DNA of 64,000 bases from an uncultured Coriobacteriaceae bacterium (lineage in GTDB: Bacteria > Actinomycetota > Coriobacteriia > Coriobacteriales > Eggerthellaceae), in contig URQU01000003.1 in NCBI GenBank assembly GCA_900550055.1, positions 15,661-79,660 on the forward strand, given 5' to 3'. The first letter of the stretch is position 1; the number at the start of each line of letters is the position of its first letter. This document shows positions 4,144 to 57,601 of this stretch, in pieces. A program made the position numbers and the translations under genes. The notes under the pieces are model-generated. The model was given only the letters and a program-made list of their open reading frames with translations. It searched no databases and was not told where the DNA came from.

Positions 4144-4932
4144 TTGCATGGGAAAGGCGGAAACTTGGAAGAGAAAGACCCTCAGGCGTCGTTGGCCTCG
4201 GGCAACGGCACGGTGACGTTCTATATCACGCGGCATGGGCAGACGGTCTACAACGTTGCAAGCCGTGTGCAGGGCTGGTGCGACTCGCAGCTTACCGACG
4301 AGGGCATCCGTGTGGCGCGTCTGCTGGGTCGCGGCCTGGCGGAGGTCCCGTTTGCGCAGGCCTACTGCAGCGATGCCGGCCGTGCGGTGCAGACGCTCAA
4401 CGCGGTGCTTGCCGCCAGAATCAAGGAGAACCCGCAGGCCGAGTTACCGTTCATCCATGTTCCCGATCCGCGCCTTCGAGAATGGTGCTACGGCAACCTG
4501 GAAGCAGGGCCGGGAAACGAGTTGCACGCGGCGCTCACCCGTGGCTTCGGCGAGGACCTGCCCTTCGACGAGTTGAACCGGCGCCTGCCTCAGGTGGCCG
4601 AGGTGCTGGCCGACCAGGACGACACCGGGCGCGCGGAGCGCTTCGACCAGGTGAAGGCGCGTCTGGAAAGTTTCTTCAGCGAAGCGGGCAAGCAGGCGCT
4701 TTCTGCGGGCGGCGGCAACGTGCTGGTGGTCACGCATTCGTTCGTGGTGCGATCGGTCATGTACCTGCTGGATCCTTCGCGCGTGAACGACCCGCTCAAG
4801 ATCAAGAACGCCAGCGTCACCCAGGTGACCTACGACGGCGAAACCTTCACGCTAGGGGAGACGGCATCTACCCGCTGGCTGGGCGAGATGCCGCAGGAAG
4901 CCAACGCCATTCCGTTCGGGTTCCGCATGTAA
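4144..4932 (+). CDS. histidine phosphatase (phosphoglycerate mutase) family protein
   Basis: An N-terminal RHG motif (FYITRHGQTVYN) and a C-terminal catalytic His region (VVTHSFVVRS) are present. Confidence 0.7.
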   Translation: MHGKGGNLEEKDPQASLASGNGTVTFYITRHGQTVYNVASRVQGWCDSQLTDEGIRVARLLGRGLAEVPFAQAYCSDAGRAVQTLNAVLAARIKENPQAELPFIHVPDPRLREWCYGNLEAGPGNELHAALTRGFGEDLPFDELNRRLPQVAEVLADQDDTGRAERFDQVKARLESFFSEAGKQALSAGGGNVLVVTHSFVVRSVMYLLDPSRVNDPLKIKNASVTQVTYDGETFTLGETASTRWLGEMPQEANAIPFGFRM

Positions 4933-25110: not shown

Positions 25111-25178
25111 CGGCCAGCGAGCCTGCTCGATGTTGCGGGGCGCTTTCGCACCCCGCCTTACGGCAGCTGCGCCCGGGT

Positions 25179-25397
25179 GTGAACAGGGGGCGGAGGTATG
25201 TTCACGGGTGTGTTTGGGAATTGCGGGTCTTCGTCGTGAACATGCCTCCGTCCCCTGTTCACGATGAAGATGGCGCGCAAGCGCCTATATTGACTTGGCG
25301 AATCCGTGATAACTTTGGCGGACTCGTGTCAATCGATATGCGGGCCTGCTCGTGAACACGCTTCCGTTCGCTGACCAGGGAACGGAAGCGTTCGATC
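25179..25397. repeat. cluster of GTGAACA-type hairpin / inverted repeats at the chromosome / mobile-element junction
   Basis: 25179-25205 (gtgaacagggggcggaggtatgttcac) and 25236-25262 (gtgaacatgcctccgtcccctgttcac) are near reverse complements of each other, and each is internally hairpin-forming. A third unit at 25352-25397 has the stem cgcttccgttc/gaacggaagcg. Confidence 0.4.
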
Positions 25398-25528
25398 GTC
25401 CCGCTGGTTTCGACAGACCTGCGGTGATTAATCACCGCATCGCATGAAAGGAGGGATGCGCGATGGCAAAGCAGCGTAAGAGTTTCCTGCTGTTCGATGG
25501 CTGCAATTATCGCTCCCTCCTATTTACA

Positions 25529-25554: not shown

Positions 25555-25795
25555 TTTCTAGGGTGTGGAAACCTCCCGGCACCATGGCTCAAGATTCGAC
25601 CCAAAGCCGACTATTCCCATGGGCGATTGCCGAAAATGCCCCCAATCGAGTTGTGTTTTTCTCTCCATATGGACCGTTTATGGAGAAAAGCGCCTTCGTT
25701 TGCCGTTAATCGCGCAACCCGCGCGTTGAAACTCCCCCTCAGTGGGCATAAAGACCCCCAGGCCGCCGCTGCCGGCGGCTTACCCTCCGAGACGG

Positions 25796-26158
25796 ATGGT
25801 TTGGAAAGGAAGGAGCCGGGGTTTGGAAACGGTCAACAGGGTCGTGGTATCGGGGCTCGTGTTCGGGCCCGTGGAGTTCACGGAGCCGGACAGGGGGCCC
25901 GCGCATGCGCGCTTCTGCCTGTCCCAGGAGAAGCCGGCGGGCTCGCGCCGCGTGGAGCATAGGTTCCACTGCGTCGCGTTCGGCCCGGTGGCGATGGCTG
26001 TGGCAGCTTCCCTTGCACCTGGCGTCGCCGTGGTGCTCGAGGGGGAGCTTGCCGAGGCGAGGGCGGCGTCCTTTCTCGACGGCCGGCCGCGCAGGGCCGA
26101 GACCGGCGGGAAGAGCGAGATCAAGGTATCGACTTTCCTCAAGGTCGACGCGCGCTGA
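25796..26158 (+). CDS. SSB-like OB-fold protein (divergent); the real start may be the TTG at 25823
   Basis: (M)ETVNRVVVSGLVFGPVEF ... HRFHCVAFG ... KVSTFLKVD resembles the SSB N-terminal OB fold. It lacks the acidic C-terminal tail. Confidence 0.4.
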   Translation: MVWKGRSRGLETVNRVVVSGLVFGPVEFTEPDRGPAHARFCLSQEKPAGSRRVEHRFHCVAFGPVAMAVAASLAPGVAVVLEGELAEARAASFLDGRPRRAETGGKSEIKVSTFLKVDAR

Positions 26159-26221
26159 TTCCGGTACGGGCCCCATGGCCCGTGCCTTTTTCATCCCGCA
26201 CATCTGCATAAATACGCATGC

Positions 26222-26250
26222 ACGCATATGCGCATATGCGCATATGCGTA
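26222..26250. repeat. tandem (CATATGCG)x3 alternating purine-pyrimidine repeat
   Basis: The sequence acgcatatgcgcatatgcgcatatgcg holds three NdeI-type palindromes immediately upstream of a promoter-motif copy. Confidence 0.6.
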
Positions 26251-26312: not shown

Positions 26313-26363
26313 GCACAGGATGCGGGCGCGAGCCCGCGATGGATGACCATGGAGGGATGGCAT

Positions 26364-26732
26364 ATGGGAAGGAAAGAGTCCGCCGGGAATCAGGCCGGCA
26401 CGGCGAGGATGACGGTCGGCGATAGGTTCTGGGCGCGGCGCATCCGTCCGATCTTCGACGACGGCGACCTCACGCTCGAGCAGAAGTCGGTCTTCTGCTG
26501 CATCGTGGCGCGCGACCCCATGTCGGTGGCGATCGAGTGCCCGGCGCGCGACATCGCGGCGGCCGAGGCCGGCCTGCCGCGCCGCGACTACGACGAGGCC
26601 CTGGACGCGCTCGAGCGCGGCGGCTACATCGTCGACATCGTGACGCCCTACGGCGAGGATCGGGACGGGGAACTCTGCATGGTCCCGATCCCCGCCGATA
26701 TCGTGAAGGAGGGGGTGCAGTGCCGTGGGTAG
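26364..26732 (+). CDS. hypothetical protein, first gene of the replication module
   Basis: A GGAGGG RBS sits 7 nt upstream of the ATG at 26364. The 123-aa protein overlaps the start of the rep-like gene. Confidence 0.45.
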   Translation: MGRKESAGNQAGTARMTVGDRFWARRIRPIFDDGDLTLEQKSVFCCIVARDPMSVAIECPARDIAAAEAGLPRRDYDEALDALERGGYIVDIVTPYGEDRDGELCMVPIPADIVKEGVQCRG

Positions 26733-28137
26733 CGCCAAGAGACACGACGCATCGGTGCAGTCCGCCGACCCCACCCGCGACGAGCTCGACGAGACCTTCG
26801 AGATCCTGGACCGCGACGGCGCGGTCGTCGTCTTCGGCGGCGACCTCATGGAGCGCGGCTTCGGCATCGTCTCGGCCAAGGCGACCGAGGACACCCGCCT
26901 GTCGTCGTCGGCCAAGGGCGTATACGCCTACTTCTGCGCCCATGCCGGCGCGGGCACCCATTCGCTGTTCCCGTCCGTGGACACGATCTGCACCCACCTC
27001 GCGATGTCGCGCAACACCTACTACCGCCACCGCCGCACCCTGGTCGAGTGCGGCTACATCAGCGTGCACCAGGGTCGCGCTCAGGGCCGCGGGCGCTATC
27101 TCTCGAACCGCTACGTCGTCAATGCCGAGATCCCCGAGGAGCGCCGTTTCGTGCCTGTCGATAACTCGAAATCGGCCGATGCCGCCGCTGTTGAAAACTC
27201 GCTTGGGGAAGACGCCGAAAACGAAGTTATCAACAACCCGCAGGATTCGCCGTGTACCAAAAATTGGTACACGGGCGACCAAACTAACGTTAGTTTGCAA
27301 CTAGATTCACCGTGTACCAATTTTTGGTACACGGGCCCAACTGGGAAAACGATTTCACCGTGTACCAATTTTTGCGACACTAACAAGGATGTTGTTATTG
27401 ATGTTAGTGAGAGAGGGCGCGCGGGCGCGCTGCCGTCTGTCGAAAACTCGGCGGTGTCGAAGGCCGCGGGCGACTCGGTCACGGTCGTGAAGGTCGCGTC
27501 GGAGGCCGGCCTTGGGCTCGAGACGGAGGTCTCGGTCTCCAACGCCGAGGTGCTTGCCCTCATGCGCATGTCCATCGGCAAGGCGGAGGTCTTCGCCGAC
27601 GTCGCCGAGGCTTATGCCCGTGTGCTGGCGGACGGCTGGACGCTTCCGCGCATCGGCCGCGCCTACGACACATACCGCCGCGAGTACGCGGCATCGCACA
27701 CCGACGGCCGCTACATCATGTCGCTGCCCAAGTTCCTCGCCGCCGGAAACGGCCTGAGGTTCTACGACCTGAGGGCCGATCTTGTCGATTCCGGCGCCGT
27801 GGCCGCGGCCGAGGAGAAGGCCGCCCCGTCGAAGGCGCCGACCCGCGAGCAGGTCCGAAATTACGTGCACGAGAAGGGCTATGACGCCCCCGACCCGGAC
27901 AATCCCGCCTACCGCGTGATCGACCCCGATGAGTTCTTCGACTACTACGAGGCGACCGGCTGGGTCCGGGCGGGCGGCGTGCCGATCGTCCGATGGAAGA
28001 ACGTCGTGAACACCTGGCGCCGCAAGCCCGCGCCGCGCTCCGCCCGTAAGTTCGGCCCGTCCGGGCCGAAGAGGGCCATGAGCGTCGCCGAGCGCGTGGC
28101 CGCCGATAGCGACTTCAGCGAATTCAACGACGACTAG
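26725..28137 (+). CDS. replication-initiator-like protein with an N-terminal helix-turn-helix
   Basis: KGVYAYFCAHAGAGTHSLFPSVDTICTHLAMSRNTYYRHRRTLVECGYI is an HTH of the type found in plasmid/phage replisome organisers. The gene contains palindromic iterons and is followed by a DnaC-like loader. Confidence 0.6.
   Translation: MGSAKRHDASVQSADPTRDELDETFEILDRDGAVVVFGGDLMERGFGIVSAKATEDTRLSSSAKGVYAYFCAHAGAGTHSLFPSVDTICTHLAMSRNTYYRHRRTLVECGYISVHQGRAQGRGRYLSNRYVVNAEIPEERRFVPVDNSKSADAAAVENSLGEDAENEVINNPQDSPCTKNWYTGDQTNVSLQLDSPCTNFWYTGPTGKTISPCTNFCDTNKDVVIDVSERGRAGALPSVENSAVSKAAGDSVTVVKVASEAGLGLETEVSVSNAEVLALMRMSIGKAEVFADVAEAYARVLADGWTLPRIGRAYDTYRREYAASHTDGRYIMSLPKFLAAGNGLRFYDLRADLVDSGAVAAAEEKAAPSKAPTREQVRNYVHEKGYDAPDPDNPAYRVIDPDEFFDYYEATGWVRAGGVPIVRWKNVVNTWRRKPAPRSARKFGPSGPKRAMSVAERVAADSDFSEFNDD
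27249..27410. repeat. iteron-like array inside the rep gene: three 30-bp units built on the palindrome GTGTACCAA-N5-TTGGTACAC, an extra palindrome aaactaac/gttagttt, and a flanking AT-rich stretch
   Basis: Units lie at 27251-27273 (perfect), 27311-27333 (perfect) and 27357-27381 (right half-site degenerate). Each is preceded by gattc(a/g)cc. The palindrome aaactaacgttagttt is at 27281-27296. An AT-rich stretch taacaaggatgttgttattgatgttagtgag follows. Confidence 0.6.
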
Positions 28138-28159: not shown

Positions 28160-29191
28160 ATGAACGACACGCAAGCGCAGGCGAGGCCGGTGAGGCCCAC
28201 GCTCGAGGAAGTCGAGGCCTACGTCCATGGGAAGGGCTACGACGTGCCCGGCGCCGCCAACGCCTTCTACGGCAACTTCTTCTACGCCTACCACGACGCC
28301 CGCGTCTGGCGGCGCGCGGACGGCACGCCGGTGGCCGACTGGAGGGCGGAGGCGGACACGTGGCATGAGAGGGGGCCGCACTACCTCGAACCGGAGCCAC
28401 GCGCCGCTGCCCCGGCACCCGCGGCGTCCGCTCTGGTCTCGGCGCCGGCACCCGAGGCCCCGGTCGCCTCGCCCGAGGCGCTTTCCGTCGGCGGTGCCCT
28501 GCCGCCGCTCGAGGTCGCCGACGTCGCGACCTTGGCCGCGACCGACCGCGCGTTCCATGAGGCGGTGGTCCGCAAGACCGGCATCCCGCCGCGCTTCGCA
28601 CGCCGCATCGCCGAGGGCGAGGCCGCCCCGGAGCATGCCTATGACGCGCGACTCGCGCGCGGCGGCGGGCTGTACATCTACGGCCCGCGCGGCGTGGGCA
28701 AGACCGAGCTGGCGTGCCGTATCGCCTACGACTACGCCGGCTCGCGCCTCGATCCCCGCTTCGGCAACTGGGCGTACCGTCCCGTCCCGAAGGGCAGGCC
28801 CAAGCACGGCGTCAGGTTCGTCGTCTCGGCCGACCTCATGACCGAGCTCCGCTCGACCTTCGACAAGGGAGGGGACAGCGAGGCCGACGTCATCCGCAGG
28901 TACGTGAACGTCCCGGTCCTGATCATCGACGACCTGGGCAAGGACTCCTCGACCCAGTGGGTGCTCGCGAAGCTGTTCCAGATCGTCAACGGCCGCTACG
29001 AGGCCGAGCGCGCCACGATCGTGACCAGCCAGTACACCCAGGCCGGCCTCGCCGCGGTGCTGTCGGAGTACGGCCGCAAGGAGGACGCCCTGGCGATCGT
29101 CTCGCGCCTGGCCGAGATGACCGAGCGCGTCAAGGTCGACGGCCCGGACCGCCGCATGGCGCCCTGCGACGCCGAGGGGGCCGGGCGATGA
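28160..29191 (+). CDS. DnaC/IstB-like AAA+ ATPase (helicase-loader candidate)
   Basis: Walker A is GPRGVGKTELA and Walker B is LIIDDLGKD. The N-terminal 60 aa are paralogous to the C-terminus of the upstream rep-like protein. Confidence 0.75.
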   Translation: MNDTQAQARPVRPTLEEVEAYVHGKGYDVPGAANAFYGNFFYAYHDARVWRRADGTPVADWRAEADTWHERGPHYLEPEPRAAAPAPAASALVSAPAPEAPVASPEALSVGGALPPLEVADVATLAATDRAFHEAVVRKTGIPPRFARRIAEGEAAPEHAYDARLARGGGLYIYGPRGVGKTELACRIAYDYAGSRLDPRFGNWAYRPVPKGRPKHGVRFVVSADLMTELRSTFDKGGDSEADVIRRYVNVPVLIIDDLGKDSSTQWVLAKLFQIVNGRYEAERATIVTSQYTQAGLAAVLSEYGRKEDALAIVSRLAEMTERVKVDGPDRRMAPCDAEGAGR

Positions 29192-29388: not shown

Positions 29389-29935
29389 TGTCCGCATAGG
29401 TATGTGCATGAGCGTCCGCATATCTGCGCGTTTGCGCATGCACATACCCGCACAGAAGCACAGATGCGAGGGCGCGTATCCGCGCGCCCTTCTTGATGGA
29501 TTGAGGTTTCCCATGGAGAGGATCGAGGAGATGTCCGCCGAGCGGGCGGAGGGCATATCGCCGGGCTCTACGGCGACGAGCTGTACGGCCTCGAGCTCGA
29601 CGGCGAGGTTTCGGGCGAGGGGGCCATGCGGTGCCGGTACGCACCGGTCCATGATGAGGTGAGGGGCATCTGCGATGCGCTGGGGCAGGACTACGACCGC
29701 ATCGCGACCGATCGTGCCGGGATGCTCTGGGCGGGCGAGGGGATGCCTCACCGCTTCGACGCATGCTGCGAGATCAGCGACATCGCGAGGCGCCTGCGCG
29801 CCCAGTGCCGCGATGTCGCTTCCCGTTCGGAAAGCCCCGGGCCGCGGCGCCGGCCCCATCGCTAGCAGGCGCTAGCATCTTGCGGAAGGACACGCATGGG
29901 CCGAATGTGCCCGGACAACGGAATGGAGCTTCAAG

Positions 29936-30970: not shown

Positions 30971-31069
30971 TACCATGGTGGGTGCGGATGCGCCCGCAGG
31001 CGCTTTGGCATACACACGCAAACGCTCAACCGCGCATCCGCACATACCCATGCATCCGCATCCGCATAT

Positions 31070-31309
31070 ATGCGTAAAAGGGGACGTGCCATGATTGGAA
31101 ACGTCTTGAAGCCCGACGGCACGGTGCATATCGAGCAGCAGGTCGGCAACATGCGGTACGACCTCACGACGGGACAGGTGGAGACGGTGGTCCCCGCGGC
31201 GGGCGCCACGAACCTCGTCTTCGGTGCCGACGGCCGCCCGCACGTCGAGCTCACGGCCGGCAGCATTCGCCAGGATCTGGGCAGGCCGGGTTTCGATACG
31301 CTCCTGTAG
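31070..31309 (+). CDS. small hypothetical protein
   Basis: It is 79 aa, and the start may be an internal ATG. Confidence 0.3.
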   Translation: MRKRGRAMIGNVLKPDGTVHIEQQVGNMRYDLTTGQVETVVPAAGATNLVFGADGRPHVELTAGSIRQDLGRPGFDTLL

Positions 31310-31584
31310 GTTCCGCAATCGCACATACGCATACACGTACACATACGCAGTTGCGCATACGTACACTCGCACAATGGAACACATGCACGTCGGCATATCT
31401 ACGCACATGCACATAGCCGCACACGCGCCCATCGGGCTCCAGCCTCGGTGGGCGCCTTGTTTCCGGCCGTTTTCCGTATCCGGTGTTTAAGCCGCCGGAT
31501 ACAGGGGATAACCACCTGAGGAGAAACGGACAGCGCCGAGGGAGGGCGCGCACCGGAATATTTCGGAAGGAATGTAGAACTGAA

Positions 31585-34525: not shown

Positions 34526-34963
34526 ATCACCGGCGCATCTGTCCGGATGCATATCCGCACATCGGCATACATACGCCGAGGCACATACGCGCACACGCAT
34601 ATATACACACCAGCACCATTGCACATATGCGCGCACGCATAAAGACATAGACGCACAGATGAACAGGCCGCGACCCCTTACGAGATCGCGGCCTGTTCTC
34701 GGACCGAAGTCCCACCCATGAAAGAAATCCGCGATGCCCGCATGGGAAAGACAAGCCGTTCGGCTGCGCGGGGCCCACATCATTCTGAGGCTATCGTACC
34801 CGTCTGCGCATCGGGGTATACGGGCGCGCGGGGAAATGCGCGGAAGCATATCCGCCCCGCCTTCAAAAACTTCCTATAGTTTCTGCAAAACCCCCGTTCA
34901 GCGTATATTTTTTCGCTTGCGCGGGTATCAATTCCCCGTTACTGGTCGAACGGATGACGGGAT

Positions 34964-36475: not shown

Positions 36476-39001
36476 CTACCGTCTGCCGGTGAGCTCCCAG
36501 TCCCAGATATACTCCTCGACCTGCTCGGCGAGATGGAGCGGGGCGGGAAGGTTCACCCTCATATCGTTCTTGTAGAGCTGCACCATGCAGCCGCGCAGGG
36601 CCTCGGCGTATTTGACGCTGGCAAGCGCCTCGGCCTCGCCACCGGGCGACAGAAGGCAGTACTCGTTGATCGTCTTCTCGCAGAACGCCGCGGTGGGCGA
36701 ATCGTACTTCGATCCGCGTGCGGACCATTTGTACTGGGCGTCGCCCGGTCGCGGGGCCAACGCGAGGAAGTAGCCGTCCATCTTGAAGAGTCCCTGCTTG
36801 TCGCGCCTGTTCGGCACGGTGCCGTCGTCTGCGCCGCCCGCGGCCACCTCGTCCGTGAACCAGTCGGGGACCTCGCCGTTGAGACCGGAGCGTATACGCA
36901 GGATGCGCAGCTTGCTGCCCGCGAGGCCAAGCGGCTCCTCATAACCGGTCGGTCCGTAGCTCAAGGGTCCCGACTCGAGGCCGGAGTCGCTGATGCCGGG
37001 CCACCAGTCTCTCTGGCGGATGCGGCCGTAGGAGTTGACGAGGAGGAGTTCCGGCCTGTCGCCGGTGGCGCGGACTATGCCGTGGAGCATCCTCTTCAGG
37101 GCCATTCCGTTTGCCCGCTTGCAGGAGTCCGGAAAGCCCTCGGAACCGCTCAGCCGGGCGAACTCGATGAGGGCGCGCCAGTACGGTAGGCTTCCGTCAG
37201 GTAGGAGGGGGCAGTACACGGTGACGGCACCGCTTCTCATGTCCTGTCGGACGCAATAGGGGAAGCTCGCACGCGCCTTGCCGTTGCCGGAGTTGTAGAC
37301 CTTCAACCCTATCGCCGGGATCGAGGTATCGATGCCGCGCGAATTGCGTGCCGGTTCGGGTACGAAACCGAGCTGGCGCATGAGGTCGCGGACGGCGACG
37401 CGCGCGCGGATCTCGGGACTGTCCTTCGAGTCCTCGGGTTCGATGAATTGGGTCAGGCGCCCGGTTTTCGCGAACGCGATGCGCAGGGCGCGCTTGGGGT
37501 CTCCGCCGTCGTCTTTGCCCTTGGGCTTGTAGCTCTCGGCGCCCGGCAGGGCCACTATGCACGCGGTCGGGTCGGTCGCCTCGGGAAGCGCGGCGGCGAC
37601 TTTGCGCCAGCGGATCTTCGCCTGGCTGTCGCCGGTATTCTCCATGCGGTTCAGGAGGTCGTTTGCCGGGATGTTATCGATCTCGACCTCGAAGCCGTCG
37701 ACGGCCCCCTCCCCACCGAGAAAGCGGGAGATCTCGGCCCTTGCCATATCGAGGAGCCGGGCATCGTCCTGGTTGCCGATCAGCTGGAATACGGCCCTGT
37801 CCCTGCCGGTGCAGTGGGCGAGTCTGGCGCGGTTGGCCCGGCCCCAGGTCTCCTGTCTCGCCCGTGCGCTGACGGGGTCCTTGTCCCAATCCGCCTGCCT
37901 GGGTTCCTCTATGGACGCCTTGAGATGGGTCAGTTGAAGCGAGTCGAGCGCACCGACGGGCTCCGCGATATCTTTGAGCCGAGCCGCGACGGCCTCGAAG
38001 AACATGGCCTTGTCGATGACGGATGCCCCGCTTGCGACCGAAGGCTTCGATGCCCAGGAGGCGGTCATCGCGTAGGGGGATAGGATCTGCGGCTGCGAGC
38101 CGTCGCGGGCGTACCTGCCCATGTCCTCAAGATACTCGCGGACTGCGGGCAATCCGGTCCCGCTGGCGAACTCGTAGTTCGCCAGGGCCGCGGGGTCCCA
38201 GGCCAAGTCGCGCTTCTGTTTGTCGTAGCCGTAGGGGACGACGCGGAGCGTGCCGCCTTCCGTGCGGACGTAGGCGTTGACATCGTGTTTGAGGAACGGG
38301 TCGTCCTGCCATGGCTTGCCGATGAAGCGGCGGACGGCGACATCCATGTTGAGCCTTGCCTTGCGGCCGACCGGCAGCGTCTCGACGTGGAATCTGAGGG
38401 CGAACGCCCACGGGTCCTCCTTGTGCCAGTGGATATCGGAAATCAGCTCGTAGACGTTTCCGTTTCCGCGTGAGACTCTGCTGAAGTTCTCGACCATGCC
38501 GTTGGCGAGTTCGAGGGGGATGTCGGCGATGGCGTCGGCGACTTGCGCGGAGAATGCGGGGAAGGTGAGCCTGCCCGTGGGACGGCCGTCGCCGCTGAAC
38601 AGGCGGATCTCTTCGCCACGCACGGCCTCTTCGAACGTCTCGGGGTGCAGCATCCCCATCACCTTGCGGTAGGCGGGGGATTGGGTATCGATGTCCTTGC
38701 GGGAGGAGATCCAGACCGCGATGACGTTGCATAGCTTCGCGAGATCAATGGGGGCGAGGGCGATAAGCCAGCTGTCGGTATGTACGTTGGGGCGTACGGG
38801 ATTCAGCTCGACGGCCCGGTCGAGCCAGCAGCGCAGGTCGTCCTTGAGGACTTTGGTGTTGAGGTAGCCGCCCTCTTTCCTCGGGGGCATGAGCGTGAAG
38901 AGGGCGTCGCGCAGGCTGTCGGGCAAGCCGACGACGTGCACGGTCGTCTTGGTGTCGAGAACGGGTGCGAATGACATGAGGTGCAGCTTAGAGTCCGACA
39001 T
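36476..39001 (-). CDS. large (842 aa) protein, candidate pPIWI-RE-type (prokaryotic PIWI/Argonaute-like) component of a three-gene conflict system
   Basis: The start is placed at MSDSKLHLMSF (ATG 39001), with an AGGAAAGGAA RBS and a 14-nt overlap with the upstream helicase stop. Size, operon position (after a REase and a DinG-type helicase) and lack of other recognisable enzymatic motifs fit pPIWI-RE. The PIWI fold itself is not verifiable by eye. Confidence 0.5.
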   Translation of the reverse strand: MSDSKLHLMSFAPVLDTKTTVHVVGLPDSLRDALFTLMPPRKEGGYLNTKVLKDDLRCWLDRAVELNPVRPNVHTDSWLIALAPIDLAKLCNVIAVWISSRKDIDTQSPAYRKVMGMLHPETFEEAVRGEEIRLFSGDGRPTGRLTFPAFSAQVADAIADIPLELANGMVENFSRVSRGNGNVYELISDIHWHKEDPWAFALRFHVETLPVGRKARLNMDVAVRRFIGKPWQDDPFLKHDVNAYVRTEGGTLRVVPYGYDKQKRDLAWDPAALANYEFASGTGLPAVREYLEDMGRYARDGSQPQILSPYAMTASWASKPSVASGASVIDKAMFFEAVAARLKDIAEPVGALDSLQLTHLKASIEEPRQADWDKDPVSARARQETWGRANRARLAHCTGRDRAVFQLIGNQDDARLLDMARAEISRFLGGEGAVDGFEVEIDNIPANDLLNRMENTGDSQAKIRWRKVAAALPEATDPTACIVALPGAESYKPKGKDDGGDPKRALRIAFAKTGRLTQFIEPEDSKDSPEIRARVAVRDLMRQLGFVPEPARNSRGIDTSIPAIGLKVYNSGNGKARASFPYCVRQDMRSGAVTVYCPLLPDGSLPYWRALIEFARLSGSEGFPDSCKRANGMALKRMLHGIVRATGDRPELLLVNSYGRIRQRDWWPGISDSGLESGPLSYGPTGYEEPLGLAGSKLRILRIRSGLNGEVPDWFTDEVAAGGADDGTVPNRRDKQGLFKMDGYFLALAPRPGDAQYKWSARGSKYDSPTAAFCEKTINEYCLLSPGGEAEALASVKYAEALRGCMVQLYKNDMRVNLPAPLHLAEQVEEYIWDWELTGRR

Positions 39002-42000
39002 TTCCGATTCCTTTCCTGAATGACTCGTAGAACGGCCCGTAGAGGGCTTTGGCGACCTCCGGCTGGTCGCTATCGTGCATGAGGCGTTCCATGTAGGCGC
39101 CGAGCTCTTCCAGGGTCCTGAACGAGAGCTTCCCGTCGCCGCCGCGGAAGGCCGCATCGGCGAAATAGACATGCGGCGCGGGCCTCTCCTTATCGGCAAG
39201 CCTCGCCAGGCGTCCGAATATCTGGATGATCGTGACCATGAGCGTGGAGATCGCGTCGTCTACGAGGAATTGCCTGCCCATGGTCCTCCATGCGCCCATG
39301 GGAAGGTTCTCGTCCCGCTCCATGGTCTTCCATGTGCGCCAGGCGGAGGCCCTGACCTCGGTCGCGAACTCCCCGGGATTGGCCGGGAAGTCGCCGACCT
39401 CCCTTTCGATGAGGCCGTTGAGTTTGCGGTATCGCCCGCCGAGGTCGTGCGGTGTGCCCATCGGCCGCACCGAGAAGATGAGGCTCGTGAACACGGCATG
39501 GCCGCCGCGGTCGACGATATTGAAGCCGCGCTCGATGGCCATGGCCGGCGCCACGAGCACTTTGGCCGGATGGTCGCAGAACTTGTAGACTTCGCTCCGG
39601 GGCACGAAGTGCTCCCTGTGGTCGTGGTTGTTGCGCACCAGGGCCGCGACCTTGATTGCCTGGCCCTTGCGTCGGAACTCTTGCTCGATGCGGTCGCGTG
39701 CGTCCTCGGCCTCCCGGTAGCTGTTCACGATGACCAGGGCCTTTCCCGCGCCATCCGCGTCGAGTTCGTCCCTCAGCGTGGCCATGGTCTGCGATAGGAC
39801 GATGCCGAGGTTGCCGGAACGCATCTCGGCGGCGCTGCCGGACACGTTCTGCTCGATGCCGAGGTCCCTCACGGTCGAGGTGGAGAGCTTGGCCGCCTTC
39901 CACGGCTCCGCCTCGAGGAGGTAGTCGACCGGCCTGTTCACGTGGTATTGCAGGCAGCCGGGCTCCCAGCTCGAACCGGAGAGCAGGAGCACGTGCGGCC
40001 CCAGCGCCGCCCCGGCGGGGTCGGTATCGAGCCAGGGCAGCGAGCACATGAAGGCCCGCCCGAAGGCGAACTGCCGGAAAAGCCTGAGGTCGTTGCCGTC
40101 GAGCTTCATCCCGAAGATGTTGCCGATCAGCGAGTTGGGGAGATAGTGCTGCTGGCGCGTGTAGCTGAACTTGAGGAAGTTGTACAGCTCGTCGACGGAA
40201 TCGTCCTTGAAGCTGAGGAGGTCCTGCGCGGAGGCGAGTTCGCGCAGGTACGAGTCGAACCGGATGACCTTGAGGGCGAAGGAGAACCTGGTCCGCAGCT
40301 CGTCGGGAAGCTCCGAGCATCCGCATGCAGCGAGGTATTCGTTCAACGAGTAGCTGTGGGTGTCGTCGTCGATGCCCTCGCAGGAGGTCGCGACCGCCTG
40401 CGAGAGCTTGTTGAGGGCCGCGTCGCCGCCATCGAGGCTCTTCTTGGCAATCTCGAATCTATAGGGGTTGATGAGTTTGTCGGCATCCTCGTAAACCTGT
40501 TTGGGAAGGCCCTGCTCCAGGAGGTCGTTCAGAAGCGAGAGTGACGTGAACGCCTCGTCCTTGACGATGCGCCATTTCGCCACGCGGTCGTCCCTGACGG
40601 ATTTGAGCAGCGCCTTCGCGACGGGCTCGGATTTCTGGCGCAGGTCATAGAAAAGCTCCTCGTTGAAGTCCCTCATCTTGTCGTCCGGGCGCCGCTTCAT
40701 GGCTACGGCTGTCGGGTCGGCGGCGTTGCGGATGAGCTCCTGGAAGCTCATGCTCGGGGCGAAGCAGCCGTCGAGCTGCGCCTGCACGCGGTCCGCCTCA
40801 TCGAACAGGACGACGTCGAACTGCTGAAGAGCCTCCTCGAAGAATGCCTTGCGCTCCCTTCCGACGATCATGGTGGCGAAGCCGGTGGGAGTCGTGACCA
40901 CGACGTCGGATGTCAGGGACTCGCGGGCCATGGCCTGCGATGGGCACACGTCCCAGTACGGGCATGAGTTCGCGCCGCCCTTCTTGGACCGGAGGCCGCG
41001 GCATGGCGTGCTGCCGTATCCGCAGGCCTCGGGATCGGAAGAGGAGAGCCCGTCCATGATGCAGGCGGTCTCCAGGTATTTGGATGCGGAATGGTCGAGG
41101 AGCATGGAGTCATCGTGGTCGAAGAACTCGTCGAGCCGTTCGATGCGCCTGCCGCGCGACACCAGGGGCGAGGCGCTGATTCCCGCCTCGCGAAGCAGGA
41201 CGACGCTTTCCATCACGTCCGATACCGAGTTGAGCAGGGATACCGCGCGCAGGCCGCGCTTCGCGAGGCAGACGATGAGCATGTTGGCGAGGACGGACTT
41301 GCCGGCGCCGACGAGGCCGACGAGGCTCACGACCTCATCGAGGCGCAGGCCGTCAGCGACGGATGTGCTGCCGCCGCGGGCCCGCTTGAGGAGCCCCTGG
41401 TCCTTGACCCTTCTGAGCACGGCGGCGTAGTGGGTCTTCCCGGTCTTCTCCCCGACTTCGTCCGCGGTCGAGATGAGCTCGTCGAGGGTGATATCGATGG
41501 GCGGGCGCCTGCTCTTGCGGGGGATATCGTCAATCTTGCCCGTTTGGGGCGGCACGGCATCGGGTATGGTCACCCAACGGATCGATCCGGTTACCGTGGT
41601 ATCGCCGGTCGCCTCGGGCTTGCATGTGTAGGAATACCGTCCTTTGGGTCTCGCGACCACGTTTTTATGGGAGAGTTTGACATCGCCGAGGAGGCGGTCT
41701 ATATAGATCGGCATGCGGTCGATCCCGGTAAGGGGGTGCTCGCGCAGGGCCATTCCGCCGTTGGCGATATCGAAGAACCGGTACCGCTCATATTCCGCGC
41801 GCTCGTAGAGGCCCAGCAGTCGCCGCCAGGCCGTGGATGAAGCCAGCGAGAACAGGTGTCGGCGCGCCATCTGCATGAGGTGGCCGTCCGCGCCGATGGT
41901 CTCGGGCCTGATGAGCTGGTAGTTCGATAGGAGCCTGTCGGCCTTTCGGGGATCGGCGCCGGGACCGCATACGCGTACCGCGAGCGCGAGCAGCGACTCC

Positions 42001-42110
42001 ACATTCAGGAACTCGTCGAGGGATAGGTCGCTGTCCTCGGGATAGCGCACCTCGAGATTGCGCTTCAGCTGGTCGAAGCCTTCCTGGGCTGTATCATTCG
42101 GCTCGCTCAT
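38988..42110 (-). CDS. DinG/XPD-type (Rad3-like) SF2 helicase with an Fe-S cluster insertion
   Basis: The start is placed at MSEPNDTAQ (ATG 42110, ATGA-coupled to the upstream gene). Walker A is GLVGAGKS and the DEAD-like box is VLFDEADR. The four-Cys module CIMDG ... CGYGSTPC ... SCPYWDVCP is typical of XPD/DinG Fe-S domains. Confidence 0.7.
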   Translation of the reverse strand: MSEPNDTAQEGFDQLKRNLEVRYPEDSDLSLDEFLNVESLLALAVRVCGPGADPRKADRLLSNYQLIRPETIGADGHLMQMARRHLFSLASSTAWRRLLGLYERAEYERYRFFDIANGGMALREHPLTGIDRMPIYIDRLLGDVKLSHKNVVARPKGRYSYTCKPEATGDTTVTGSIRWVTIPDAVPPQTGKIDDIPRKSRRPPIDITLDELISTADEVGEKTGKTHYAAVLRRVKDQGLLKRARGGSTSVADGLRLDEVVSLVGLVGAGKSVLANMLIVCLAKRGLRAVSLLNSVSDVMESVVLLREAGISASPLVSRGRRIERLDEFFDHDDSMLLDHSASKYLETACIMDGLSSSDPEACGYGSTPCRGLRSKKGGANSCPYWDVCPSQAMARESLTSDVVVTTPTGFATMIVGRERKAFFEEALQQFDVVLFDEADRVQAQLDGCFAPSMSFQELIRNAADPTAVAMKRRPDDKMRDFNEELFYDLRQKSEPVAKALLKSVRDDRVAKWRIVKDEAFTSLSLLNDLLEQGLPKQVYEDADKLINPYRFEIAKKSLDGGDAALNKLSQAVATSCEGIDDDTHSYSLNEYLAACGCSELPDELRTRFSFALKVIRFDSYLRELASAQDLLSFKDDSVDELYNFLKFSYTRQQHYLPNSLIGNIFGMKLDGNDLRLFRQFAFGRAFMCSLPWLDTDPAGAALGPHVLLLSGSSWEPGCLQYHVNRPVDYLLEAEPWKAAKLSTSTVRDLGIEQNVSGSAAEMRSGNLGIVLSQTMATLRDELDADGAGKALVIVNSYREAEDARDRIEQEFRRKGQAIKVAALVRNNHDHREHFVPRSEVYKFCDHPAKVLVAPAMAIERGFNIVDRGGHAVFTSLIFSVRPMGTPHDLGGRYRKLNGLIEREVGDFPANPGEFATEVRASAWRTWKTMERDENLPMGAWRTMGRQFLVDDAISTLMVTIIQIFGRLARLADKERPAPHVYFADAAFRGGDGKLSFRTLEELGAYMERLMHDSDQPEVAKALYGPFYESFRKGIGNVGL

Positions 42111-43309
42111 CGCGTGCCTCCCTTCGCGGCGGCATCGAGTCGTTTCGAGAAGTTGCGCAGCGTTTCGCATGAATAGCCGGTCTTGCCGCGCAGGACGGCA
42201 TTGCATAGCGCGCGATATCCGGGATGGTCCCGTTCGACTTGGTCCGGCACGACATAGGCCACCTCGTCCGCGCACATCTGGGCGATGCCGGTGTCGTCCT
42301 CTATCTCGCGGGCAAGCCGCTCGGCGCGGCCGTATGCCTTGGCGTCGACGGCAAGCTGTCGGCCGTCCGGCAGATGGATCAGGATGTCGCAGGTGTCCTT
42401 GAGGGGCCACATTTCGTATTTCAGACCGAGGCCCGCTGCGGCCTCGGCGATCGCCAGCTCGAGCTTTCCGGGGGAAGAGATGTAGTGCATGACGCCGCGG
42501 GATAGGCGGAAGGCGTCGTGCGCGACGCTGTCCAGCTTGTCGAAATCGCCTGTGACGGCCTTGGCGCACGTCGCCGATGAGCAGTGGGGCTGCTTGCCTC
42601 GCATGGTCATCGTCCAGCCGCAATTCGGGCATACTTTTGCGGCGCCCGGGACGGGTTCGTAGGCCATGGAGACGAATTCCTGCAACCACACCGGGTCGAT
42701 GGTGTCGGCTTCGCCCTGGTCGAGGGGGTCGGGGTCGCCCAGGGCGAGCCCCGTCTTGATCCTGACGTATTCGTTCCAGGTGAGCAGCGGGTGGCGGATG
42801 AGCATCCTGCGTCCGTACACGTATTGCTCCTGGGTGCCGGCTCGGAGGAATTCATACACCCTGCGTTCCTGATGGCCGCCCAAGAGGTCGTTTTCCGCAA
42901 AGCGCAGCACCTCGTAGCATTCCGACGTCGCGGCGAAGTAGTCGCCGTCTACTGACGCCAGGGGCCCGATCTCGATGGACCGGCACCCTTCGACGGCTTC
43001 CCTGCACTCGTCGCGCCACCGGGCCGTCCACTCGCGCACGTCTGACGCTGCGCTGTTCCTGATGAAATCGGACTCATTGAACGTCGGCAGCAGCTCTTCC
43101 GCATCGTCGGAACACTCAGCGCACAGCGCGGCGAGGATATTCATGCCGTGTCTGAATGCCTGGCTGTAGGGATACCTATGCGGGTCGGCCTCGTAGAGGC
43201 CGTCCTTCTCGGCGATGCCGTATGCGATGAGGAATACGGCGGTCTCGAAGCGGTTGGCGATATCGCGGGCTTTGCCGGCGGCTTCGGCCGCGGCGATCGG
43301 GTCGGACAT
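42107..43309 (-). CDS. restriction-endonuclease-fold (PD-(D/E)xK) protein with a Zn ribbon, first gene of the operon
   Basis: The start is placed at MSDPIAAAEAAGKA (ATG 43309, AGAGGTGG RBS). The Zn ribbon is CPNCGWTMTMRGKQPHCSSATC. The C-terminal ILIHLPDGRQLAVDAKAYG gives a PD...D-x-K core. Confidence 0.6.
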   Translation of the reverse strand: MSDPIAAAEAAGKARDIANRFETAVFLIAYGIAEKDGLYEADPHRYPYSQAFRHGMNILAALCAECSDDAEELLPTFNESDFIRNSAASDVREWTARWRDECREAVEGCRSIEIGPLASVDGDYFAATSECYEVLRFAENDLLGGHQERRVYEFLRAGTQEQYVYGRRMLIRHPLLTWNEYVRIKTGLALGDPDPLDQGEADTIDPVWLQEFVSMAYEPVPGAAKVCPNCGWTMTMRGKQPHCSSATCAKAVTGDFDKLDSVAHDAFRLSRGVMHYISSPGKLELAIAEAAAGLGLKYEMWPLKDTCDILIHLPDGRQLAVDAKAYGRAERLAREIEDDTGIAQMCADEVAYVVPDQVERDHPGYRALCNAVLRGKTGYSCETLRNFSKRLDAAAKGGTR

Positions 43310-43495
43310 GGACCACCTCTTTATTGGAATTGGCATACACAGCAGCTTTGATACCCGCCCCCGCCGCGCTTTACACGCCCCTACCGAAACTCGACGGATA
43401 AAAATGCCCCTGCACCGGCTCGAATCGAGTGAAAGACTTCCCGCGCACGGGGTAGAAAAAGCTGGGACGGCACGCATCCGCGCGAAGGGTTTGAC

Positions 43496-44320
43496 ATGTC
43501 TAGGGTGGCTTACGGGCAAAAGGGATACATCGGCGCCTCCATGAGCGCGAACGCGCGGGCGGCCTACGAGGCGGGGGAGATGCCCCGCTCGAAATGGACC
43601 AAGGCGGCGATCCTCGGCGCCTTGAGGGGCTACTGCGATGAGATGGACCTGCTCTACGACCCCGCGGTCGAGTCCGAGACCAGGGCCGCGCTCTTCGACC
43701 AGTTCATCGCCTACTCGTCCTGGCACCACACCGGCGCCTACGCCCGCGAGACGGAGTTCTTCGCCCTGGACGAGGCCGCCGTGATCGGGGCGTTCCGCGA
43801 GCTCGGGCCCGAGGAGGCGGCCGAGCGCGACCGGATCCGGGCGCAGGCTGCGGCCCGGGTGCAGGAGGCGGAACGGCATCGGAGGGAAGCGGAATGCCTA
43901 TTCGAGTACCGCTTCTCCTGCTCCCCATATAGCGCCATGGCGTACGAGGCGTTCCATCCCGAGCTGTGCGAGCGCCGCGTGAGCAAACGCAGGAAGCAGG
44001 AGCTCGTCGTGTACCGGCTGCCGGACGGCAGCGAGCCGTCGGGCTATGCGGAGATGTCCGTCCCGGCGGACTATGCGGACAGCAGCCATGTGGTGCCGTC
44101 GGTTTTCATATCCGGCACGGGCGGGGATCGCGCGTGGCGCGATATCGACTTCGACGAGGCCGAGCGGAAATTCGCAGCGGCGGCGAGAAGGGCCGCGGCC
44201 TTTCGCGAGGGGAGACCGAAGCTCATGCAGGACGAGGCCAGGCGCGCTGCGATACGTGAGACTCGGCACCGCGTCTGCACCGCCCCCATTTTGAAGAGCA
44301 TAAAGGAGATTCACAGGTGA
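43496..44320 (+). CDS. hypothetical protein, divergent from the three-gene operon
   Basis: It is 274 aa. A TTGACA hexamer sits at its start region (gggTTTGACATGtct). Confidence 0.5.
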   Translation: MSRVAYGQKGYIGASMSANARAAYEAGEMPRSKWTKAAILGALRGYCDEMDLLYDPAVESETRAALFDQFIAYSSWHHTGAYARETEFFALDEAAVIGAFRELGPEEAAERDRIRAQAAARVQEAERHRREAECLFEYRFSCSPYSAMAYEAFHPELCERRVSKRRKQELVVYRLPDGSEPSGYAEMSVPADYADSSHVVPSVFISGTGGDRAWRDIDFDEAERKFAAAARRAAAFREGRPKLMQDEARRAAIRETRHRVCTAPILKSIKEIHR

Positions 44321-44874: not shown

Positions 44875-44919
44875 GCCGCCCCGCTCGCACGTCCACACAT
44901 ATATGTATATGCGCGTCTA

Positions 44920-44952
44920 TGCGTTTACGTACATGCGCATATGGGTAGACTC
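44920..44952 (+). promoter_or_regulatory. element promoter-motif copy 2 (TTTACG, 16 nt, TAGACT)
   Basis: The sequence is cgTTTACGtacatgcgcatatgggTAGACTc. Confidence 0.5.
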
Positions 44953-50821: not shown

Positions 50822-51058
50822 CCGACCCGTACAACCCCATACTCAAGTGATCGCCCCACCGGAGACGGCGGGGCTTTTTCATGCCGTAGCCCGTCTCCAC
50901 ACGTTTCCCACACCCGGCTGCCTATGGGACGGATGGGGTCCCGCCGGTCATCCGGCCATGGAAATCGCAGGCCAGGGGCCTGCCGACCGGTGTCCGGGCG
51001 GCCCGCTGGGCAAATTATCGAATTACGCAGACGCATATGTGCGCATTTTCGTGTTTGT

Positions 51059-51091
51059 GCGTTTACGCATGTGCGCAGCTGGGTACATACA
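51059..51091 (+). promoter_or_regulatory. element promoter-motif copy 4 (TTTACG, 16 nt, TACATA)
   Basis: The sequence is gcgTTTACGcatgtgcgcagctgggTACATAc. Confidence 0.5.
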
Positions 51092-56639: not shown

Positions 56640-56990
56640 ATACGGCCGTGACGGTATCCGAGCCGTATCGGACTTGCAACAGATGAGCAGCGTCCCGTTC
56701 GTCGCGAAAGAGACGAGGGACAGCCGAAACGCGGACGGTATAACGGCATCGGATGACCGGTGTAAACCGGTTTAAACCCAGGCAAATAGGGGTAGGATAC
56801 TGAAAACTTCGCAAGAGACGCATACTTGTACCTCCATCGTAGATGTATGTACAAGTATGCCACCGAAGTCGGTCAGATTTCCGCCACCGGGCACAGCCCG
56901 CCGACGGAAATCTGACCGCCTCCGGCGCTTGCCAGGGCTCCGCCCTTGGACCGGGGTCGCGCACAGGTGCGCGAGGAATTGGAGGAAGCG
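56640..56990. promoter_or_regulatory. candidate oriT / relaxosome region upstream of mobC
   Basis: GC drops locally. A perfect 12-bp palindrome taaaccggttta lies at about 56764-56775. An inverted repeat acttgtac-N17-gtacaagt lies at about 56825-56857. Confidence 0.3.
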
Positions 56991-57019
56991 TGGCAGAAAA
57001 AGCCACCTCGCAGACAAGA

Positions 57020-57601
57020 ATGGTCAGCATCAGGTTGACCGAGGAGGAAATCAGCACCCTCAAGGCTAAAGCGAGTCTTGCGGGCACGACCGTCACAGAC
57101 TTCGTCCGCGAGACGGCGATCTACGGCAAGCAGGAGTTCACGCTGGCGAAGCTGCCCGGCGGCGAGCGCGTGGACGTGAAGGAGGCGCTGGAAGGGTTAC
57201 TCGACACCGAGCACCGCACGGTGCAGAAGCATTTCAACGTGACGCCTTACGAGGACACCTTCATCCGTGACGCCGCGAGGAAGGCCGGCATGACGCAATC
57301 GCGCTTCATGGTCGACCGCATCCTCCACACGCCCATGTACTACATCGGCGACCCCGACTTCTTCCAGAAGTTCTTCTACGAGCTCAACAAGCAGGGCGTG
57401 AACCTGAACCAGCTGGCCGCCGCGGCGAACACGCTGATCCTCCTCCAGGACATGCCCGACATGGCCAGGGAGCGCCGCTGCGAGCTCGCGGCGCAGATCG
57501 AGCACTTCGTAGCGACCCTGAAAGACCCATACTGCAAGGCGCTCGCGGAGACGCGCGGCCTCATGATGCAGCTCAGGCGGCAGTCCGAGGTGGAGCGATA
57601 G
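57020..57601 (+). CDS. mobC: MobC-family mobilisation (relaxosome accessory) protein
   Basis: The RHH-like N-terminus is RLTEEEISTLKAKASLAGTTVTDFVRE and the MobC motif is GVNLNQLAAAAN. The start could be the ATG at 57020 or an upstream GTG. Confidence 0.7.
   Translation: MVSIRLTEEEISTLKAKASLAGTTVTDFVRETAIYGKQEFTLAKLPGGERVDVKEALEGLLDTEHRTVQKHFNVTPYEDTFIRDAARKAGMTQSRFMVDRILHTPMYYIGDPDFFQKFFYELNKQGVNLNQLAAAANTLILLQDMPDMARERRCELAAQIEHFVATLKDPYCKALAETRGLMMQLRRQSEVER

Follow-up and report, generated by a model that had tools for sequence, protein, structure and literature searches.

Why should the gene of a replication initiator carry three nearly identical palindromes in the middle of its coding sequence, and is it the DNA or the encoded peptide that has been kept? 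The question is raised by rep, a gene in a 64-kb stretch of contig URQU01000003.1 from an uncultured Coriobacteriaceae bacterium (hereafter the window; about 63% GC over its whole length, with all coordinates given in its numbering). Our answer is that the region at about 27155-27447, which lies in frame within the linker of Rep, the initiator of an integrated mobilizable or conjugative element, is probably that element's own origin of vegetative (theta-type) replication. The origin sites occupy codons 174-230 of 470, after a winged helix-turn-helix (wHTH) region at residues 50-135 and before a C-terminal domain that starts at residue 273.

Direct reading and a repeat search both revealed a 33-nt unit, GATTC(G/A)CCGTGTACCAA-(AAA/TTT)-TTGGTACACGGGC, in three direct copies; the second is 88% and the third 67% identical to the first, and the start-to-start spacings are 60 and 48 nt. 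Within each unit lies a palindrome, CCGTGTACCAA-(AAA/TTT)-TTGGTACACGG, with 11-nt arms and a 3-nt spacer; its core is 21 bp long, or 25 bp counting the CC/GG ends. Iterons 1 and 2 are perfect palindromes that differ only in the spacer (AAA versus TTT), so that over 25 nt one is the exact reverse complement of the other; iteron 3 has a variant right arm, TTGCGACAC. The features of the gene and of its array are as follows:

26725-28137, plus strand: rep, encoding a 470-aa initiator or replisome-organizer-type protein (Pfam HTH_36; PHROG).
27155-27165, minus strand: CTGTYGAWAAC repeat, copy 1, with the DnaA-box-like 9-mer TTATCGACA (8/9 matches to TTATCCACA).
27188-27198, minus strand: CTGTYGAWAAC repeat, copy 2, reverse complement TTTTCAACA; its core is conserved and the adjacent bases vary among homologues.
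27227-27235, plus strand: DnaA-box-like TTATCAACA (8/9 matches), 9 nt before iteron 1 and invariant in homologues.
27244-27276, no strand assigned: iteron 1, with the perfect 25-bp palindrome CCGTGTACCAA-AAA-TTGGTACACGG at 27250-27274; arms invariant in 11 close homologues.
27280-27297, no strand assigned: 18-bp perfect palindrome CAAACTAACGTTAGTTTG between iterons 1 and 2, unique in the window and invariant in close homologues.
27304-27336, no strand assigned: iteron 2, with the perfect palindrome CCGTGTACCAA-TTT-TTGGTACACGG at 27310-27334.
27352-27384, no strand assigned: iteron 3, CCGTGTACCAA-TTT-TTGCGACAC at 27358-27380, invariant in close homologues.
27367-27412, no strand assigned: AT-rich tract (30% GC over 27367-27406), which overlaps iteron 3 and continues directly 3' of it.
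27437-27447, minus strand: CTGTYGAWAAC repeat, copy 3, reverse complement TTTTCGACA, just past the AT-rich tract.

The initial annotation, made from the letters alone, had described three palindromes of 23 bp with a 5-nt spacer. The three palindromes are real, but their dimensions were wrong: a pattern with an N5 spacer has no match in the window, whereas one with N3 matches exactly the three iterons (0.01 expected by chance), and the palindromes are 25 bp long. Its account of two perfect copies and one degenerate one, in direct orientation about 48-60 bp apart, agrees with both the reading and the repeat search, and the peptides that it listed, PCTKNWYTG, PCTNFWYTG and PCTNFCDT, appear in the translation. 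The additional palindrome that it placed between the copies turned out to be longer than claimed, and the AT-rich block that it saw after the iterons is also there.

Three palindromes, the 18-bp palindrome, the AT-rich tract and four DnaA-box-like 9-mers fit in 290 bp, and the motifs of this array are each statistically unexpected and each unique to the array region. All five copies of the 11-mer arm in the 64 kb lie within the array (0.48 expected). The 40-mer at 27367-27406 belongs to the lowest 0.08% of the window in GC content and is the most AT-rich 40-mer among its coding regions; the 170-nt stretch at 27245-27414 (43% GC) falls in the lowest 0.14% of such windows. We propose that the AT-rich tract (27367-27412) would serve as a DNA-unwinding element (DUE). 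The CTGTYGAWAAC repeat brackets the array at 27155, 27188 and 27437 and occurs nowhere else in the window (three matches versus 0.03 expected). Between 27156 and 27446 there are two 8/9 and two 7/9 DnaA-box-like 9-mers as scored against TTATCCACA; TTWTCRACA, a pattern derived in part post hoc from these sequences, is found seven times in the window versus 0.7 expected, four of them at the array. The 18-bp palindrome may be an auxiliary protein site, and its CTAAC/GTTAG reappears at 27379 and 27404. Tandem Repeats Finder did not report the array, because its units are too few and too widely spaced.

Close relatives show which part of this sequence is held constant. Rep genes that are 94-98% identical in DNA are found in Eggerthella, Gordonibacter and metagenome-assembled genomes labelled Collinsella. 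We aligned 11 rep genes, that of the window and ten genome homologues. Not one of the 64 positions in the palindrome arms is variable, and the core as a whole (27244-27412) varies at 8 of 169 positions, versus 30 of 167 in the adjoining linker (Fisher p = 1e-4). Three of the eight core changes constitute the spacer of iteron 2, which reads AAA in every one of the ten genome homologues but TTT in the window: this flip exchanges T-K-N-W for T-N-F-W and leaves the palindrome intact. Both spacer states are common in metagenome contigs scanned for the exact palindrome; in the contigs with a rep context and the ten genome loci, three-unit arrays read AAA/AAA/TTT 24 times and AAA/TTT/TTT 10 times. 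The inversion of the spacer is present in no fewer than ten independent contigs. About ten more contigs have two-unit arrays, which is consistent with unequal recombination between units. The number of units is one, two or three among proteins that are otherwise 88-100% identical, and 20-36 residues can be missing from otherwise near-identical proteins. Because unit number and spacer vary and the arms do not, Rep tolerates the loss of 16-36 residues and a radical two-residue change while the DNA arms stay constant.

The same picture extends to distant relatives. We searched 185,579 species genomes with a profile and obtained 80 loci. The distant ones, from Clostridia, Bacilli and a few Coriobacteriia, have only the helix-turn-helix (HTH) domain in common with Rep (27-45% identity), and most Firmicutes members have two tandem HTH_36 domains. 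At least three copies of a 12-mer (one mismatch allowed) are present in 30 of 53 distant rep open reading frames (ORFs) versus 19 of 182 control segments of matching length taken from those loci (odds ratio 11, p = 1.6e-11), and the repeats lie just after the last HTH_36 domain. A half-site common to many of them, GTGT(A)CC / GG(T)ACAC, is 5.6 times denser in the rep ORFs than in the flanks. One relative of 46% GC (L001), with a protein 31% identical to Rep, contains CCGTGTACCAA three times, base for base as in the 65%-GC window gene (GC at third codon positions 0.83), so that all 11 arm bases, third-codon positions included, are identical in organisms of such different composition. The 25-bp design recurs as CCGTGTCCGAAATTTTCGGACACGG in L052 and as CCGTGTCCCAAATTTTGCGACACGG in L058 (Bacillota); the latter uses the GCGACAC arm of iteron 3 in the window, and iteron 3 is therefore probably a legitimate variant site.

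In several of these genes one DNA repeat is read in two frames. The repeat CCGTGTCCTAAAAAT of L049, L065 and L045 is translated as P-C-P-K-N and, frame-shifted, as (D)R-V-L-K-I; the repeat GGAC(T)TAAA..T..GGACACGG of L082 as G-L-K-N-L-G-H-G and Q-D-L-K-I-S-D-T; and that of L078 as P-C-R-K-N-Q-D-T and A-M-S-Q-E-L-G-H-G. A peptide repeat cannot survive a change of frame, and the conserved entity is therefore a DNA site. The peptides PC[PT] and DT/YT, which keep recurring, correspond to the two strands of a single half-site. The order of elements is conserved as well. We took the most AT-rich 40-mer in the 80 nt that follow the last repeat of each of the 37 distant genes with at least three repeats, and in 29 of them it ranks among the lowest 5% of the gene in GC content. 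Downstream of the repeats, GC content falls 7.8 points short of the gene mean (p = 2e-4), whereas upstream there is no such drop (p = 0.5). The poly-Asn runs in these proteins result from the AT-rich tract that follows the repeats.

The palindrome is also found outside rep genes. The exact 25-mer occurs in 62 metagenome contigs, 36 of which have the rep-gene arrangement (34 with the site inside a Rep ORF found by hidden Markov model, and two cut at the contig end), and 26 of which have it elsewhere. Of the 26 orphan contigs, 25, all from gut metagenomes, agree in the surroundings of the site, which lack a coding signature and, over as much as 12 kb, a Rep gene (contigs L084-L087, L089-L091, L093, L097, L099, L101, L102, L104, L108, L113, L115, L117, L118, L120, L122, L123, L126, L128, L131 and L133); OKVR01000011.1 and OHWY01000025.1 are examples of contigs with these surroundings. 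Since these orphans keep the 25-mer where it is not translated, it is maintained as DNA. In the orphans the palindrome is extended to a perfect 47 bp, CGCAGGTAAAT-CCGTGTACCAA-AAA-TTGGTACACGG-ATTTACCTGCG. It stands close to secA, in low-GC DNA with a DUF1648 gene on one side and a gene for an ABC/AAA_21-type ATPase on the other, and its left flank contains about 20 nt similar to the flank of iteron 1. Two contigs, L113 and L123 (site at 4557-4603 in the latter), have a TTT spacer. The AAA/TTT inversion has recurred independently, in the rep-embedded iteron 2 and in the orphan palindrome; it is consistent with hairpin- or cruciform-mediated template switching. In L112, a different replicon, the palindrome lies in a 300-bp intergenic, repeat-dense, origin-like region (2372-2673) with eight copies of TGTACA, three direct copies of ACCAATTTTTACACC and a GC hairpin, between an EcoRII-type restriction-modification pair and a gene for a 648-aa protein without a family match.

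What kind of protein is encoded around the array? Rep matches the whole HTH_36 profile (PF13730, positions 1-55) at residues 57-112, with 61 bits against a cut-off of 25 (E = 9.6e-17); all of its homologues have a precomputed PF13730 annotation, and its PHROG matches are to families named replication initiation, DnaD-like loader and O-like initiator. The matches to the replication initiation O-like families are weak (phrog_391, 2.2e-5; phrog_678, 1e-4), and Rep had no Pfam match to Phage_rep_O (PF04492) or PF09524 at E <= 0.1. NCBIfam has no model for Rep, and a sequence search of the PDB gave nothing usable (best E = 0.94). An AlphaFold2 model of low overall confidence (predicted local distance difference test, pLDDT, 44.5; predicted template modelling score, pTM, 0.29) was used for the contrast between winged helix and linker alone: residues 50-135 are modelled confidently, and residues 139-272 have pLDDT values <35 and no secondary structure. 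The model hints that the part of Rep encoded by the origin, residues ~139-272, may be a disordered linker, and peptides such as PCTKNWYTG would then be a by-product of translating the palindromes through it.

The genes next to rep complete a replication module, in the order SSB-like gene, small wHTH-like ORF, HTH_36 rep and DnaC-like loader gene:

25742-26158, plus strand: SSB-like OB-fold protein (Pfam SSB, 27.4 bits versus a cut-off of 26), at the head of the module.
26331-26732, plus strand: small ORF, weakly wHTH-like, which overlaps the start of rep by 8 nt (GTGGGTAG).
28160-29191, plus strand: DnaC/IstB-like AAA+ helicase loader (Pfam IstB_IS21, PHROG, NCBIfam), the next gene after rep.
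27838-28026 (Rep residues 372-434) and 28196-28372 (loader residues 13-71): module common to Rep and the loader, motif YVH.KGYD...W.R..G.P...W.

The loader matches IstB_IS21 (9e-13, 48.7 bits versus 24.1) and the PHROG DnaC-like loader family (8.9e-39); it scores below the cut-off of all the NCBIfam equivalogs DnaC, DnaI and IstB. Its N-terminus and the C-terminus of Rep have in common a module of ~60 residues (40% identity, E = 9e-14), which may be a docking domain; in some Firmicutes relatives, e.g., P0038, this module is a tandem duplicate. The small ORF at 26331-26732 has no Pfam or PHROG match. Aligned by hhalign with the first HTH_36 domain of two-domain Firmicutes relatives it reaches a probability of 57% (E = 1e-4), and its counterpart is fused to Rep in the homologue P0009. 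It may be a detached first winged-helix domain; possibly two genes with coupled translation together encode the organizer here. The SSB-like gene holds the same position in L002 and L003.

Iteron-type theta origins are recognised by at least three repeats clustered within a few hundred base pairs, an adjacent AT-rich element, and a cis-encoded initiator with a helicase-loading partner, and the locus has all of these. Many such origins, though not all, also contain DnaA boxes. The initial annotation had compared the locus to an origin inside its initiator gene, of the lambda O type, and had pointed out that homologues keeping the peptide repeat and not the DNA palindromes would speak for a protein repeat. 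What the homologues keep is the DNA: the arms in close relatives, where the spacer flip changes KN to NF, and the half-site in distant ones, with the two-frame readings in L049, L065, L045, L082 and L078. The proposed layout is thus supported by the HTH_36 domain of Rep, the neighbouring loader gene, the repeats read in two frames, the invariant arms, the non-coding 25-mer and the order of repeats followed by AT-rich DNA. The sequence anatomy, conservation at the DNA rather than the peptide level, the family-wide architecture and the gene context are direct observations.

From here we infer how the origin would work, namely Rep binding, unwinding, helicase loading, and replication that serves the excised element. 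Dimers of the winged-helix (HTH_36) domain of Rep would occupy the three 25-bp palindromic iterons, and the resulting complex would melt the adjacent AT-rich tract at 27367-27412; host DnaA, acting at the four DnaA-box-like sites on either side, and a factor bound to the 18-bp palindrome might assist in this. The C-terminal domain of Rep would then recruit the DnaC/IstB-like loader, with which it has the 60-aa module in common, and the host replicative helicase would be loaded, with the SSB-like protein of the element stabilising the open bubble. The outcome would be upkeep of the excised circular element.

Several points weigh against this interpretation. The case for Rep binding to the palindromes is drawn only from their position and from co-occurrence across the family. 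Orphan palindromes occur with no Rep gene nearby, so a different or additional binding protein is conceivable. The homologues P0004 and P0006 keep a single unit, the one with the variant arm, from which a weak origin would be expected unless other sites suffice. The prediction of a disordered linker depends on the low-confidence model (pTM 0.29). Finally, TTWTCRACA was taken in part from these same sequences, and the DnaA-box consensus that we used is possibly not that of Coriobacteriia.

The orphans are the only part of these findings that could prove unusual. A broader interpretation would take the 25-bp palindrome as a portable origin or handcuffing module that is recognised across elements, orphans included. 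It would cover the rep genes from Coriobacteriia to Clostridia and Bacilli, the conserved half-site, the 47-bp orphan in a chromosomal islet and the origin-like region of L112; we hold this to be rather unlikely. If Rep did bind the orphan sites in trans, it would allow the element to control replication, to drive it or to cause incompatibility at loci far away or in satellite elements, an action comparable to that at SPP1 oriR or Vibrio crtS. The recurrent AAA/TTT inversion of the spacer would in that case mark active extrusion of a cruciform or hairpin at these sites.

It is also unlikely, in our view, that the array is a cis-acting DNA site with a primary role other than origin firing, such as copy control or incompatibility (handcuffing, titration), a parS-like or res-like function, or an internal operator. 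Three dimer-type sites in ~130 bp do resemble res or centromere arrays, the element encodes ParA, and single orphan palindromes far from any rep gene would suit a regulatory or titration site. Moreover, plasmid iterons commonly serve both initiation and control. On the other hand, the array is 24 kb from parA and has no resolvase or ParB-type gene adjacent to it; phage and plasmid relatives without par or res genes show the same arrangement; and the family-wide coupling to an HTH_36 initiator, the polarity from repeats to AT-rich DNA, the DnaA-box-like sites and the neighbouring loader gene all fit an origin. Two specific candidates were rejected. A serine-resolvase res site would have half-site spacings that differ, whereas all three sites have the same 3-nt spacer, and the neighbouring ORFs that were scanned contain no resolvase domain; a parS site was dismissed because there are no related repeats near parA.

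A role at the RNA level is very improbable. Each palindrome could form a strong 11-bp hairpin, the sites are inside an mRNA, and the 186-nt strand folds with z = -6.8 relative to shuffles; hairpins in the rep mRNA might in principle regulate translation, processing or stability, or pause ribosomes between domains. However, the promoter and terminator scan of the origin region gave no match, no T-run and no terminator-like site, and Rfam returned only chance miRNA-type matches, on a purine-pyrimidine tract. In relatives such as L073, L025 and L040 the half-sites are often direct repeats on the same strand, spaced by 15 nt and with no inverted partner, from which it follows that the hairpin is not the conserved feature. 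The palindrome is also present in the intergenic origin-like DNA of another replicon (L112). Covariation is uninformative either way, because the arms are invariant.

Least plausible of all, to the point of near-exclusion, is that PCT[KN][NF]WYTG is a true peptide repeat with a role in the protein and that the DNA is only incidentally palindromic: the units keep the reading frame, with spacings of 60 and 48 nt, and PCT[KN]-like peptides occur in some distant homologues (P0013, P0035 and P0045), but the change of frame within single genes contradicts it, the PC[PT] and DT/YT peptides are reverse complements of one half-site, KN becomes NF by spacer inversion with the arms kept, third-codon positions are conserved between genes of 65% and 46% GC, and the residues concerned lie in a linker that is predicted to be disordered, can be lost from near-identical proteins, and are encoded by a 25-mer that persists in non-coding DNA.

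Taking the array as an origin inside the initiator gene, we can compare it with known systems, two of which offer experimental precedent for such a layout. In ori-lambda, inverted-repeat iterons and an AT-rich tract lie in the middle of gene O; there are four iterons in lambda and six in Stx phages, with 13 extra amino acids (PMC7466680). Our locus is like lambda in having its origin in the middle of the initiator gene, inverted-repeat iterons followed by an AT-rich tract, and the helicase-loader gene next downstream; like lambdoid phages, its relatives differ in iteron number, which adds or removes initiator residues. It differs from lambda in its iterons (three of 25 bp, versus four of 19 bp), in its loader, which is of the AAA+ DnaC/IstB type and not lambda P, and in its context, an integrated mobilizable or conjugative element of a high-GC Gram-positive host rather than a phage. 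Unlike lambda O, Rep has no Pfam Phage_rep_O (PF04492) match and matches the O-like PHROG families only weakly.

The second paradigm is Bacillus phage SPP1, where oriL, inside gene 38, consists of AB boxes and a DUE, and where a second, orphan copy of the origin, oriR, lies elsewhere; its organizer, G38P, is assigned to PF09524 (PMC5737612). The SPP1 module comprises the replisome organizer G38P, the loader G39P, the helicase G40P and the SSB G36P. Similarities are the origin inside the organizer gene, repeated boxes with an adjacent AT-rich DUE, an organizer without an AAA+ domain, an SSB gene in the module, and orphan copies of the site elsewhere, as with oriR. Unlike SPP1, Rep has no PF09524 domain, the loader is DnaC/IstB-like and not G39P-like, and no DnaB-type helicase encoded by the element was found in Pfam and PHROG searches. 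Origins inside rep genes of lactococcal phages were reportedly described in older work, which is probably relevant here.

The closest company of Rep is elsewhere. HTH_36/DnaD-like replication proteins are encoded by staphylococcal phi11-type and phiPVL phages, Enterococcus EF62phi and C. perfringens plasmids of ~54 kb. With the HTH_36 proteins of Firmicutes prophages, phage-plasmids and plasmids Rep has in common an N-terminal winged helix of the origin-binding type (27-45% identity). With metagenomic and genomic HTH_36 relatives it has in common the succession of HTH domain(s), repeats, an AT-rich (Asn-rich) tract and a C-terminal domain, often with the same half-site GTGT(A)CC. Unlike Firmicutes members, it has one HTH_36 domain plus a possible detached one, and only its N-terminal ~100 residues can be aligned with theirs. 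By sequence, Rep belongs to a large, poorly characterised set of HTH_36 initiators and to neither the lambda O nor the G38P family. We found no description of embedded iterons in this family in the literature searched, the coverage of which was incomplete. Tn6104 and streptococcal integrative mobilizable elements (IMEs) with a "replisome organizer + DnaC" are similar in being integrated and in having a relaxase and a phage-type theta module; they are from Firmicutes and use serine recombinases, whereas our element is from Coriobacteriia and has no integrase in the window. What is new is the host group and not the kind of system: the locus has the classic lambda/SPP1 layout, and its mechanism would repeat that paradigm and be no surprise to a replication specialist.

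The practical value lies in the host and in the rule. A candidate origin of ~300 bp with its initiator and loader is now at hand for an element common to Senegalimassilia, Eggerthella, Gordonibacter and contigs binned as Collinsella. To our knowledge, few replicating vectors exist for gut Coriobacteriia, and the candidate origin is therefore a practical lead for a shuttle plasmid. Furthermore, where the linker of an HTH_36 replication protein has odd PC[PT]KN..DT or poly-Asn peptides, these are translated iterons and proposed DUEs, which offers a simple way to locate origins in many uncharacterised prophages, plasmids, integrative and conjugative elements and IMEs of Firmicutes and Actinomycetota. 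The finding also bears on whether IMEs replicate autonomously after excision, which according to a review has never been studied (PMC5704250).

The element itself is horizontally mobile, site-specifically integrated, and mobilizable or conjugative, with a phage-type theta-replication module. Its left end is the following:

25170-25488: left junction of the element; homology with other copies begins at ~25445-25488, immediately after a gene for a 23S rRNA methylase of the rlmB type.

Copies in Eggerthella sp. AM16-19 and Gordonibacter sp. 28C are inserted at this site too (L004, L006 and L007), and the exact RlmB sequence is annotated in Senegalimassilia anaerobia. In L002 and L003 the replication module instead adjoins genes for a tyrosine integrase and a type IV secretion system coupling protein. 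Neither an integrase nor the right end of the element was found within the 64-kb window, nor was any tRNA gene; a comparison of the left end (25.0-25.8 kb) with the rest of the window for direct repeats of the attL/attR type gave only chance matches of 12-13 nt. Downstream of the module the element encodes a Band-7 protein, a Pif1/Dda helicase (7 kb from rep, and the only helicase found), a three-gene pPIWI_RE defence island, a second SSB, ParA, a NikA-like protein and a MobA/VirD2 relaxase. We saw no phage structural genes in the element, and a scan of viral_contigs for the palindrome gave 0 matches, which argues against a prophage.

The pPIWI_RE island, a cargo of the element, is complete (36476-43879, minus strand) and consists of genes for a pPIWI_RE Argonaute-like protein, a 1233-aa "domain Z" protein and an ORF with the C-terminal associated restriction endonuclease domain. 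An inverted repeat, CATACTTGTAC-N17-GTACAAGTATG, is present within 56810-56956, at the 5' end of the NikA-like ORF (56843-57601) and upstream of the relaxase gene. Its surroundings are common to an otherwise unrelated integrated element in L086 (1195-1296; 93-100% identity over 34-57 nt), and it is a candidate oriT or regulatory site.

Finally, the window contains strictly alternating purine-pyrimidine tracts, (CGCATATG)n-like, up to 39 nt long and prone to form Z-DNA, at the following positions:

26212-26250, 29433-29447, 31063-31076, 31320-31415, 34581-34641, 44894-44943 and 51031-51077: purine-pyrimidine tracts.

There are 18 such runs of at least 14 nt, versus ~3.6 in shuffled sequences, and 12 of them are inside the element, mostly in intergenic positions. 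Their translation yields the peculiar "CAYAHMR" ORFs, and they may act for the element as promoter or regulatory repeats.

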